In this document: in pieces, positions 14,546 to 17,747 of the stretch
Numbering within the stretch: position 1 is the stretch's first letter
Layout of the letters: the number at the start of each line of letters is the position of its first letter
NCBI GenBank assembly: GCA_041571435.1
Contig: JBFFUI010000024.1
Coordinates: 1 to 32,854 of the forward strand
Origin: Sulfurimonadaceae bacterium
Lineage (GTDB): Bacteria > Campylobacterota > Campylobacteria > Campylobacterales > Sulfurimonadaceae
Direction of reading: 5' to 3'
Length of the DNA: 32,854 nucleotides
The notes under the pieces: model-generated
Told to the model about the DNA's origin: nothing
The model's database searches: none
What the model saw: only the letters and a program-made list of their open reading frames with translations
Position numbers and translations under genes: made by a program

Positions 14546-14767
14546 GGTCTCTCTTTTTTTTGTCGGAATGATATCGAAAAAAATTGCATATATAAATATG
14601 TTATAGTGCATTTTTCTAATTGATTGTTGTTGACCTTTGATGTATAACATAATAAAACACATATGATATGTATTTTGTTTCTTTCCATTTAAGGTTTTAA
14701 ATGCTATAAACGTGCAGATGTTTATCATAAAGCTGTAAAACATAACAATAAATCACAAAGGTAAAAT

Positions 14768-16849
14768 ATGAAGATCAATCATAATTTTATGGGTGTTTCT
14801 ATAGCGACAGCAATGTTGCTGACAGGTTCTGCATATGCAGCAAATGTATCGAAGATTGTGACTACAGATAAAAGTACAGTACAAAAAGAGGCGCAGACAG
14901 CAGCAAAAGGAGCAGTTGAAAAATTAGCGCCACAATATGCAGAGGGCGAAGTTATTGTCCAGTACAAAGCTAATGTGGCTACTTCTAAAGTCAATTCACT
15001 GGCAGCTGCCAATGGACTGGCAGTAGCGAAACAGTACAAAATGCTTTCGGCTCAGGGGAAGGGGACTTACATAAAAGTTACTGGCAAACAGTCAACTGAA
15101 GAGCTTGTTGCGATGCTTAAGGCAGATCCAAATGTCGAGTCAGTGTCTCCGAACTACATTAGAAGACTGGATGTTGTGCCGAATGACACAGACTTTAGGC
15201 AGGTATGGGGACTTCATAATACTGGTCAGACCGTAAATGGAATTTCTGGTACATATGATGCAGACATAGATGCACCTCAGGCATGGGAAGTCTCTACCGG
15301 TAGTCCGGATGTTGTTGTTGCTGTTTTTGATACAGGAGTCGATTATGTCCACGAAGATCTCACGGCTAATATGTGGGTCAATACGGGTGAGATTGCAGGA
15401 AATGGTATTGATGATGATGCCAACGGATATATTGATGACGTGTATGGTGCCGATGTCGCTGTTGATCTTGCAGGGACATTGGTCGATGGCGACCCGATGG
15501 ATATCATGGGACACGGAACACATTGTGCCGGTACGATCGGTGCAGTTGGTGACAACGGTGTCGGCGTAGCAGGCGTCAACTGGGATGTCAGCATAATGGC
15601 GATGAAGGTTTTTCGTCCGGACCTAGGCGCGTATGACTCAGATATCCTTGATGCAATCGACTACGTGTTGGCACAAAAAGCCAATGGAGAGAACATCGTC
15701 GCTGTCAATGCCTCGTACGGAAGTTACGGCGGAGATCAGGCAGACCCGATGAATGCAGCTATTCAAAGTCTTGGCGATGCAGGTATCGTTTTCTGTGCGG
15801 CGGCCGGTAATGATGGGATCGATAATGATGTAGCGCCACATTTCCCTTCTTCGTATAATGCCTCAAATATAATCGCCGTTGCAGCAAGCGATCAAGACGA
15901 TCAGTTGGCAACCTTTTCAAACTTTGGTGCGACATCAGTTGATCTGGCAGCACCGGGTGTGAATATTCGTAGTACTTTACCAAGAACGTATGTACCTCAA
16001 AGTAGTGACATCTTCTTCGATGACATGGAGAGTGGTAGTTCAAAATGGGTGACAACAGGTACAAATAATACTTGGGCTATATCGACGGATCAGGAAATTT
16101 TTGAAAATCCGACTTTTCCTGTCCCAAGTCCAACCCATTTCTGGAGTGACAGCCCAGGAGTGAATTACGTACCTAATACTGATTCAGTGCTGACAGTTGC
16201 TGATGCTATTGATCTTTCAGGATATGTGGGACAGCCTGTTTATTTTGCATTCGGTGCAGCGGCATATATTGAAGGTGGTGGATGGGATCATGGTTATGTT
16301 CAAGTGTCGGGTGATGCCGGAGCAACATGGACGACAATTCACGATTTCGGAGGCTACGCAAACTACTGGGGTCACTATGAATTTGTGATACCGGATGCGT
16401 ATAAAACAGCACAATTCAAGTTCCGTTTTAATTTGACGACTGATTCTAGTGTTCAATATGACGGCTGGCTAATTGATGATGTCGGAATCGGTACAACGTT
16501 GACGAGTAGCTATGCGAACTGGGATGGAACATCAATGGCAACACCGGCAGTGACTGGTGCAGTTGCACTTCTAGCTTCAGCATATCCTGCAGAGACGGCT
16601 GCAGAACGTCAAGCACGTTTGTTAAGCACAGTTGACACCAAAACTAATCTAAATGGTGCCGTTTTGACATCAGGCCGTATGAATGTTGCTGCAGCGATTG
16701 GTGGTACGGTGGATTCTCCGACACCACCGGCACCACCGGCATCAGATGATGGCGGCGGACTTCCTGTGAACGACATCTATAGCCTACTGTTCACTATCTT
16801 TGGTTTCCTAACCATCGGTGGATTGATTGCACGTCGTAAGCTGGCATAA
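14768..16849 (+). CDS. Secreted S8 (subtilisin-family) serine peptidase with propeptide, inserted beta-sandwich domain and C-terminal sorting signal
   Basis: Signal peptide; triad VFDTG / HGTHCAG / GTSMATP; oxyanion AAGND; Pro-rich linker, GGGLPVND, TM helix, RRK. Confidence 0.93.
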   Translation: MKINHNFMGVSIATAMLLTGSAYAANVSKIVTTDKSTVQKEAQTAAKGAVEKLAPQYAEGEVIVQYKANVATSKVNSLAAANGLAVAKQYKMLSAQGKGTYIKVTGKQSTEELVAMLKADPNVESVSPNYIRRLDVVPNDTDFRQVWGLHNTGQTVNGISGTYDADIDAPQAWEVSTGSPDVVVAVFDTGVDYVHEDLTANMWVNTGEIAGNGIDDDANGYIDDVYGADVAVDLAGTLVDGDPMDIMGHGTHCAGTIGAVGDNGVGVAGVNWDVSIMAMKVFRPDLGAYDSDILDAIDYVLAQKANGENIVAVNASYGSYGGDQADPMNAAIQSLGDAGIVFCAAAGNDGIDNDVAPHFPSSYNASNIIAVAASDQDDQLATFSNFGATSVDLAAPGVNIRSTLPRTYVPQSSDIFFDDMESGSSKWVTTGTNNTWAISTDQEIFENPTFPVPSPTHFWSDSPGVNYVPNTDSVLTVADAIDLSGYVGQPVYFAFGAAAYIEGGGWDHGYVQVSGDAGATWTTIHDFGGYANYWGHYEFVIPDAYKTAQFKFRFNLTTDSSVQYDGWLIDDVGIGTTLTSSYANWDGTSMATPAVTGAVALLASAYPAETAAERQARLLSTVDTKTNLNGAVLTSGRMNVAAAIGGTVDSPTPPAPPASDDGGGLPVNDIYSLLFTIFGFLTIGGLIARRKLA

Positions 16850-16870
16850 GGCCCATTAAGAAGGAGTGGC

Positions 16871-17386
16871 ATGAAAGGCTACGTTATACGATACGCCTTT
16901 TGGGCTCCCCTCTTATTTGGGCTCATCTACTTTCAAAATTTTTCTCCTCTCTTCTTCATCAGTACACTACAAACTGACCTTACAACTCTATTGACAGCAG
17001 CAGGTATCGATCTTTTGCAACTGCCAATACAGATGCAGGGCATTGAGATGGTGCTTAGAGACGGCCTTCATCTGCGCATCTTACATGAGTGTAATGCCAT
17101 GGCCCCGCTTTTGCTTTTTGCAGCTGCCGTCTGGTCATATCCGACACATTTTCAGACAAAAGCATTTTGGACACTCCTGGGTTATCTGCTGCTTATGCTG
17201 TTGAACATAGGGCGCATCATGTTTGTGCTCTATGTCGTCGACATAGATAGAGAGAATTTAACATGGAGCCACCACTATCTCGGCAGGTACGGTATGGGAG
17301 TGATGACGCTAGTTCTGTTCTGGGTTTTTACCAATGTGGTTGAGGTCAAAAACTATAGATATAATATAGGTATAAAAAGGACATAG
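16871..17386 (+). CDS. Exosortase/archaeosortase-family protein (short, XrtH-like)
   Basis: Multi-TM; Cys in HECNAM, Arg in LNIGRI, His in WSHHYL in the family order; AAGGAG RBS; directly follows a protein with a C-terminal TM sorting signal. Confidence 0.82.
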   Translation: MKGYVIRYAFWAPLLFGLIYFQNFSPLFFISTLQTDLTTLLTAAGIDLLQLPIQMQGIEMVLRDGLHLRILHECNAMAPLLLFAAAVWSYPTHFQTKAFWTLLGYLLLMLLNIGRIMFVLYVVDIDRENLTWSHHYLGRYGMGVMTLVLFWVFTNVVEVKNYRYNIGIKRT

Positions 17387-17387
17387 T

Positions 17388-17747
17388 ATGAAAAAGTTGT
17401 TATTTTTATGTGCGGCTACGGTTGCCGTTGTGTCGAGCAGCGGCTGTGCGGCCAAAGATACGAATTTCGAAAATACACCTGTTGAGATAGAAACACAAAA
17501 GAGCGATGTGATGCAAAGTGAAGCAATAGTTGTTTTCAACAAGGGGATTACTCTTGGTGAAGCAAAAAAGATAGTGGAAGGTTACGGCATAGCCGTCGTC
17601 AAAACATACAAAACACTCTCCGAGCAAAACAATCAGCTCTACCTTCTGGTCAAATCATCCGCAACGACAGAAGAGTTGGTTAAGACACTTAAAAACGACA
17701 GTGCGGTTCATTCTGTCTCACCAAATCGAAAAAACCGACTTTTTTAG
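17388..17747 (+). CDS. Lipoprotein consisting of a stand-alone subtilase propeptide (I9-like) domain
   Basis: Lipobox-like SSGC; last 75 aa align without gaps to the propeptide of the 14768 protease; AAGGA RBS overlapping the exosortase end. Confidence 0.8.
   Translation: MKKLLFLCAATVAVVSSSGCAAKDTNFENTPVEIETQKSDVMQSEAIVVFNKGITLGEAKKIVEGYGIAVVKTYKTLSEQNNQLYLLVKSSATTEELVKTLKNDSAVHSVSPNRKNRLF

Follow-up and report, generated by a model that had tools for sequence, protein, structure and literature searches.

A subtilase operon from a Sulfurimonadaceae bacterium combines an exosortase-family enzyme with a lipoprotein copy of the protease prodomain

Stand-alone inhibitors resembling subtilisin propeptides are exemplified by yeast PBI2, POIA1 from Pleurotus and MEROPS family I9, and the exosortase/PEP-CTERM and archaeosortase/PGF-CTERM systems were reportedly set out in papers by Haft from 2006 and 2012. 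In the JDVT-CTERM/MrtJ system, as the available part of the preprint describes it, a client is encoded in tandem with its own intramembrane sorting enzyme, usually with one client per genome, and the words subtilisin, peptidase, lipoprotein and propeptide do not occur in its main text (bioRxiv 10.1101/2023.06.07.544157, Haft). SUB1-ProM of Plasmodium is presented, in the accessible sections of the respective report, as a stand-alone propeptide-like protein that is a potent and selective subtilase inhibitor (PMC6993865). According to the available text on Tannerella forsythia, its potempins are lipoproteins of 98-132 residues whose genes adjoin those of secreted proteases that are sorted by their C-terminus, among them the S8 enzyme mirolase, and each potempin inhibits exactly its genetic neighbour (PMC9890683). 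In the rhombosortase/GlyGly-CTERM system, as far as the accessible portions of two reports go, the serine protease VesB is kept at the surface via a tripartite signal that is cut by an intramembrane enzyme, and the system is linked to type II secretion (PMC3237569; bioRxiv 10.64898/2026.02.05.703148). Three principles are already known: tandems of enzyme and client, free-standing inhibitors of the propeptide type, and lipoproteins that inhibit a sorted protease encoded next to them. Here we describe an operon of three genes in a stretch of 32,854 nucleotides from a Sulfurimonadaceae bacterium (the window; contig JBFFUI010000024.1 of assembly GCA_041571435.1), in which the gene for an S8 subtilase is followed by genes for a small exosortase-family protein and for a lipoprotein homologous to the prodomain of the protease.

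Each part of this operon is of a known kind, and the trio itself seems to be undescribed; a literature search found no publication on an arrangement of protease, exosortase and propeptide copy, and with most subscription journals outside the reach of that search, absence is unproven. What is new is that the sorting enzyme is encoded within the operon and can come from either of two enzyme families, together with an unnamed exosortase subtype and its signal. Probably, sorting to the envelope involves cleavage of the protease tail by the exosortase, with the tethered propeptide copy acting as an inhibitor of the mature protease. The locus comprises the following features, with lengths in amino acids (aa) and genes taken from a list of open reading frames (ORFs).

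14768..16849, plus strand: gene for the S8 subtilase precursor, 693 aa (ORF list)
16871..17386, plus strand: gene for a small exosortase-family protein of an unnamed subtype, 171 aa (ORF list, TIGR04178, conserved residues)
17388..17747, plus strand: gene for the lipoprotein, a free prodomain copy, 119 aa (ORF list, BLASTP to the protease)
14912..15169, plus strand: prodomain of the protease itself, aa 49-134, paralogous to the lipoprotein (PF22148, BLASTP, alignment)
16760..16846, plus strand: C-terminal tripartite sorting signal of the protease, aa 665-693 (tail profile)
14583..17735, strand not applicable: variable segment with the operon and an AT-rich upstream region, its flanks conserved in genome G270 of the same genus

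An earlier note, made from the sequence alone, had described three tightly packed, co-oriented genes, and this description holds. The gaps amount to 21 nt between the protease and exosortase genes and 1 nt between the exosortase and lipoprotein genes, the exosortase stop codon lying 1 base ahead of the lipoprotein start codon, and purine-rich motifs that resemble ribosome-binding sites precede each ATG (AAAGG for the protease, AAGGAG for the exosortase and AAAGGA for the lipoprotein). A promoter and terminator scan yielded a site count no higher than in shuffled sequence. The first gene product belongs to the S8 proteases, as had been noted, with a match to PF00082 (E 2.7e-43; Pfam) and a triad recognised by motif as D188, H249 and S589, in the order D-H-S, plus N348; all four residues are invariant across 13 aligned protease homologues. 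Following a Sec-type signal peptide (aa 1-24; read by eye), a prodomain at about aa 49-134 matches PF22148 (Fervidolysin_NPro-like; Pfam) over residues 49-129, with 37.9 bits versus a cut-off of 21 and E 2.4e-9. The catalytic domain is split by an insert at about aa 410-575, and a Pro-rich linker leads to the tail. An identity as dentilisin PrtP was considered and rejected, the score being 74.9 bits versus a cut-off of 300. A role in anti-phage defence was likewise rejected, for PADLOC returned a generic subtilase match only and no match for the exosortase or the lipoprotein.

In order to see where else these genes occur together, a sample of 401 genomes of the order was used, in which a protease homologue (E <= 1e-20) was found in 24, and the loci of all 24 were examined and scanned with profiles of the prodomain/free copy, of the exosortase and of an MrtJ-like neighbour. 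A family sample for genome G275 contained 22 genomes, all already in the order sample. The full trio was present in 5 of the 24, namely with an exosortase in the window's own genome (G000) and in G275, and with MrtJ in G169, G143 and G387, and the gene order of protease, sorting enzyme and free copy was constant in all five. Because it recurs in other genomes, the trio arrangement is beyond chance, and the co-occurrence elsewhere for which the earlier note had suggested a neighbourhood check was indeed found. Six further loci combine protease and enzyme without the free copy, three of them with Xrt (G212, G155, G081) and three with MrtJ (G381, G333, G293), and G029 has protease and lipoprotein with no enzyme between them. 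A scan of genome contigs with the lipoprotein alignment revealed a single locus, the MrtJ-type trio L063, which duplicates a counted locus and was not recounted.

The alternative middle enzyme passes the MrtJ model, with 102.8 and 105 bits versus a cut-off of 75, and the protease beside MrtJ in locus L054 passes JDVT-CTERM with 35.3 bits versus 27 (both NCBIfam). All six MrtJ-linked proteases end in tails of the type GGC[TS]YNP...RRK and all five Xrt-linked proteases in tails that lack Cys, so that the type of tail matches the adjacent enzyme in 11/11 loci, among which related genomes are not independent. The window's protease is closest to MrtJ-linked proteases (54% identity over the full length), so that protease and free copy, as an orthologous pair, have switched both the tag and the sorting enzyme. 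Among the comparative evidence, this exchange speaks most strongly for an action of the middle gene on the tail of its neighbour. The genes, their motifs and homologies, their recurrence and the co-variation of tail and enzyme are all direct observations. Like a JDVT-CTERM/MrtJ locus, the window has a client gene that adjoins the gene for a sorting enzyme, and the closest homologues of its protease are themselves such clients. In contrast to that system, the tail in the window lacks Cys and does not match JDVT-CTERM, and the enzyme is from the unrelated exosortase family. As a separate observation, L054 carries a second MrtJ-like gene (L054:1594-3440, minus strand) beside a 464-aa JDVT-CTERM-type protein and a few kb from the protease trio, and thus has two dedicated tandems in one locus.

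Comparison with the sister species G270 shows how the operon is set into the chromosome. Flanking proteins of G270 are 90-91% identical to those of the window, and the blastn alignment of the two reaches window position 14582 and resumes at 17736. There was no match in G270 to the window's protease or to the lipoprotein profile, and the only exosortase match of G270 belongs to a different cluster, the C2-type cluster described below. Because G270 is without all three genes at conserved flanks, presence and absence of the three genes go together in the two genomes. At the site of the trio, G270 has a different S8 gene (L066:744-1670; G270:C67) that runs into the contig end. Its product is distantly related (29% identity over 138 aa) and is itself a lipoprotein (...ALSAC) with no evident prodomain. 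The chromosomal site seems to be one at which envelope protease genes are exchanged.

The tail of the protease consists of the motif LPVND, a hydrophobic helix in which GFLxIG occurs, and a terminal ARRKLA, which is the motif-helix-basic layout that had been noted. When the last 50 and 70 residues were compared with the NCBIfam CTERM models (E up to 10), only an unrelated match at E 2.4 was obtained, and the whole protease (E up to 0.1) matched none of these models, including PEP-CTERM, JDVT-CTERM and GlyGly-CTERM. A profile of the tail itself retrieved 3 of 17,768 ORFs of the window's genome (2.16 Mb in 66 contigs) at E <= 3.6e-23, the next best match having an E of 0.066. The tail is a signal shared by a small protein family in this genome, and its consensus in the three clients is approximately [V/M]-[D/N]-[D/N]-x-[S]...GFLxIG...AR[RK][RK]L. 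In addition to the protease, the family comprises the following two proteins.

C2:122868-124688: tail-bearing protein 2, 606 aa, found with the tail profile, without a Pfam domain
G000:C4:12889-15120 (L082:3889-6120, minus strand): tail-bearing protein 3, 743 aa, found with the tail profile, without a Pfam domain

For the 743-aa protein, a sorting enzyme was not found nearby in L082.

The second gene product carries the signature TIGR04178 with 44.9 bits versus a cut-off of 23 (NCBIfam) and is a member of the exosortase family, in agreement with the exosortase-like protein with Cys, Arg and His that the earlier note had seen. A Pfam search gave no match for the window's exosortase, and 5 of 6 exosortase homologues have a precomputed PF09721 assignment. 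Residues C74 (17090-17092), R115 (17213-17215) and H134 (17270-17272) are invariant in 12 aligned sequences and are the putative catalytic residues. No cut-off of a named subtype was reached in NCBIfam, the bit scores being 44.4 versus 170 for XrtX, 43.1 versus 86 for XrtH, 35.3 versus 90 for XrtF, 31.2 versus 102.75 for XrtG, 30.7 versus 160 for XrtY and 24.2 versus 125 for XrtM. The signature, the three residues and the presence of proteins with motif, hydrophobic helix and basic tail are as in other exosortase and archaeosortase systems. The window differs from the named small subtypes XrtX, XrtH, XrtF, XrtG and XrtY in the missed subtype cut-offs and in a tail that matches no CTERM model, and enzyme and tail together constitute an unnamed Xrt subtype with an unnamed C-terminal signal. 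Relatives of this enzyme are few. A search of 5.8 billion clustered proteins found only 6 others, with 42-77% identity and all on contigs of <2.4 kb; the same kind of search found only 2 relatives of the lipoprotein. An exosortase homologue occurs in 35 of the 401 genomes of the order, none with >42% identity, and a scan of genome contigs and metagenome contigs with the exosortase alignment found no relative.

A second exosortase paralogue in the window's genome (C2:130345-130887; 180 aa) is 42% identical to the first and is separated from the 606-aa client by about 6 kb. It forms the centre of the C2 cluster (G000:C2:122868-133065, L081), which is conserved in G270 (counterpart L033) and contains the 606-aa tail protein, a DUF2202 protein and paralogous proteins of 427 and 453 aa, each with CxxCH near the N-terminus. 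Further on, the cluster has a Gly-rich secreted protein of 110 aa and a LuxR-type regulator, after which come the 180-aa exosortase and finally, as judged by eye, a long gene for a putative polyphosphate kinase.

Exosortase homologues were seen by eye beside pseudopilin-like (N-terminal ...FTLIELL...) and GspF-like genes in 8 of 20 related loci (L037-L040, L043-L045, L049), and the window's genome contains a GspF homologue with 41% identity. Because of this homologue and these neighbours, there are hints, by analogy with the clients of rhombosortase, at a link to type II secretion. As far as the accessible reports on VesB go, the window differs from the rhombosortase system in enzyme family, signal and protease family, and the VesB system is described without a propeptide-copy partner. 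In L059, also by eye, an exosortase homologue lies between an S8 protease gene and GspF/E/D-like genes.

The third gene product is the homologue of the protease's own propeptide that had been announced. Its residues 34-118 align to protease residues 50-134 with 36% identity over 85 aa (BLASTP, E 2e-14). The signal peptide carries a lipobox (...VSSSGC, residues 15-20) that ends in Cys20 (17445-17447), G19 and C20 are invariant among 6 lipoprotein homologues, and lipidation is predicted. When 8 free copies were aligned with 6 cognate prodomains, the free copies proved to stop at the junction of prodomain and catalytic domain (...SPNxxxRL[F/Y]), or <=3 residues from it, in 7 of 8 cases, and the window's lipoprotein ends exactly at the junction of its protease. 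A lipobox Cys is likewise present in 7 of the 8, the copy from G275 having an ordinary signal peptide and a C-terminal hydrophobic tail instead. When 1.84 billion representatives were searched with the free-copy profile, 89 proteins were obtained with E <= 0.001, 42 of them of <=200 aa. Among 21 short representatives, a lipobox was recognised by a regular expression in 12 and by eye in 3 more, whereas 2 had C-terminal hydrophobic tails and 2 were N-terminal fragments. Given a lipobox or a C-terminal hydrophobic tail across most free copies, membrane tethering appears to be a conserved property of these proteins, brought about by varying means. In the tree of prodomains the deep nodes were open; no free copy was sister to the prodomain of its own protease, with weak support, and a common origin of all free copies was not resolved by this tree.

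Some free copies depart from this pattern. Those at L035:7558-7998 (minus strand; G275) and in P0019 have, in place of a lipobox, a C-terminal hydrophobic helix followed by a basic tail; because its tail resembles that of the neighbouring protease, the G275 copy may itself be an exosortase client. P0023, P0024 and P0026 are free lipoproteins that run past the junction and share a conserved extension, ...[IKH][RK][IL]EPDP[TAS]KPQ. P0011, with 3678 aa, has 53 separate stretches that match positions 64-117 of the free-prodomain profile and may be a giant repeat protein of prodomain-like units or a low-complexity artefact.

Compared with SUB1-ProM as depicted in the accessible sections on it, the window likewise has a free homologue of a subtilase propeptide encoded near a subtilase gene. 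In contrast to SUB1-ProM, PBI2 and POIA1, which are eukaryotic and soluble, the protein in the window is a predicted bacterial lipoprotein that ends at the cleavage position, shares its operon with a sorting enzyme and would be an inhibitor by prediction only. As with the potempins in the available description, a small lipoprotein is encoded beside a sorted protease. Going by the same description, potempins are beta-barrels (OB-fold or eight-stranded), whereas the lipoprotein of the window is modelled as an alpha/beta sandwich with two helices; potempin genes lie upstream, sorting is by the type IX secretion system and their operon lacks a sorting enzyme, whereas the one in the window has the exosortase.

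The AlphaFold model of the lipoprotein (mean predicted local distance difference test, pLDDT, of 73) has a beta-alpha-beta-beta-alpha-beta core at aa 44-112, a low-confidence linker at aa 21-40 and a C-terminal tail at aa 113-119. The best PDB match of the prodomain family profile was 1spb_P, the prosegment of subtilisin BPN' (E 0.0014). A complex of the catalytic region of the protease (135-655) with lipoprotein residues 36-119 was modelled alongside 3 controls and obtained a score of 0.86, the best control reaching 0.00; 116 of 157 solved complexes attained that mark, as did 2 of 215 mismatched pairs. The runs agreed in at least 95% of contacts, with a partner pLDDT of at least 87. Residues 109-119 of the lipoprotein lie against protease residues 188-189, 249, 348 and 587-589, and the model thus places the C-terminus of the lipoprotein in the active site of the protease.

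Cleavage of the tail, the place where the protease ends up and its inhibition by the lipoprotein are inferred from these data as parts of one scheme, in which the operon would be centred on the protease and the two accessory genes would serve its sorting and its control. The subtilase would be exported by Sec and would at first stay in the inner membrane by way of its C-terminal helix, the basic tail facing the cytoplasm. The prodomain of the protease itself would fold the enzyme and would then be cut off near L134. The exosortase, with Cys74 as the nucleophile and with Arg115 and His134, would recognise the [V/M]-[D/N]-[D/N]...GFLxIG...ARRKL tail and remove it, and tail removal would, by analogy with other exosortases and archaeosortases, commit the protease to the envelope or surface. 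The lipoprotein would represent an old prodomain copy, free-standing, pre-cleaved and flexibly tethered, and its C-terminal residues would occupy the substrate cleft of the mature catalytic domain in a product-like manner, and the protease would be kept latent in the envelope.

Several observations weigh against this scheme. The module is rare, the lipoprotein profile having a match in 4 of 401 genomes of the phylum sample; the free copy is absent from 6 of 11 protease-plus-enzyme loci, and 12 of the 24 genomes with a protease homologue are without any partner, one of these homologues being on a 3.1-kb contig and ten being distant homologues that match the catalytic core only. On the side of the enzyme, two exosortase paralogues and three tail-bearing proteins are present in the window's genome, and because of the second paralogue and the two other clients the exosortase is paired with the protease by adjacency alone. 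Moreover, the exosortase tree leaves deep nodes open and a single clade of protease-linked enzymes was not resolved. With regard to the lipoprotein, position -3 of the lipobox is a non-canonical Ser, and the protein stays under the cut-off of PF22148 (15.9 bits versus 21, E 0.017; Pfam). Foldseek matches of its model were not propeptide-specific, with 3whi_B at rank 3, 1spb_P at rank 47, and ribosomal S6 and ACT-like folds in the list. Since propeptide-subtilisin complexes have already been solved, the high score of the complex model may reflect likeness to these and not binding of the lipoprotein copy. Two proposals of the earlier note stand in part. The exosortase is adjacent to the protease, and tail and enzyme co-vary, but an enzyme that has three candidate clients and a paralogue in the same genome and is exchangeable for MrtJ is not dedicated in a strict sense. 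Similarly, the idea of a self-contained module of three parts agrees with the recurring arrangement, with a copy that ends at the cleavage point and with the position of its modelled end, but the lipoprotein is a facultative member.

The main rival to inhibition is that the lipoprotein acts as a trans-acting steric chaperone (foldase) or as a docking partner, and we regard this as unlikely. Subtilase propeptides are both chaperones and inhibitors, according to the available part of the report on SUB1-ProM (PMC6993865), the modelled interface would suit either role, and the conserved tethering to the membrane would be expected of a foldase at the export site. However, every linked protease retains its own prodomain, so that a second chaperone is not obviously needed, and six enzyme-linked proteases manage without the free copy. 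A copy that ends at the cleavage position, with its modelled end in the active site, has in addition the geometry of an inhibitory product complex.

More doubtful than the chaperone role is a portable cassette for the display of a latent protease in which the three parts act as a relay, so that the copy would catch the protease at the membrane just after maturation and hold it for the exosortase or for MrtJ, and removal of the tail would be coupled to hand-off or to release of the latch. As an explanation for the locus in the window, such an integrated relay is improbable; it would have the tethered copy catch the mature protease and bring it to the sorting enzyme, with release of the latch linked to cutting of the tail. 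It would account for the position of the sorting-enzyme gene between protease and free copy in 5/5 trios with either enzyme family, and for the tight coupling of this gene to the gene for the free copy, the two ORFs abutting or overlapping in G275. However, the accessory genes are separable, with six loci lacking the free copy and one lacking an adjacent enzyme, and this separability fits two independent accessory functions better; a contact between lipoprotein and enzyme is unsupported by any evidence. That the adjacency is incidental, with an exosortase that serves the other two tail proteins or is inactive and a protease that stays C-tail-anchored in the inner membrane, is very improbable, for although the two other clients and the second paralogue would allow it, tail and enzyme co-vary throughout, even where one enzyme family has been swapped for an unrelated one, the Cys, Arg and His residues do not vary, and in comparison with G270 the whole cassette was gained or lost together.

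Sorting by the exosortase together with inhibition by the tethered copy is thus the reading that we prefer. The orthologous pairs of protease and copy, served by two unrelated enzymes and with tags changed to match, amount to a natural swap experiment, and this argues strongly, on comparative grounds, for recognition of the adjacent tail by these small exosortases and by MrtJ. The unnamed subtype and its signal, which has just three clients, form a system that is small enough to test. If a relay cassette were true, it would represent a natural system linking the sorting of a protease with zymogen-like control, and it would define a new exosortase subtype with its cognate signal. Membrane-tethered free copies of subtilase propeptides seem to be uncharacterised in bacteria, the characterised ones that were found being eukaryotic. 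Such copies may be a general means of keeping envelope proteases harmless, with a possible use as specific inhibitors or display cassettes.

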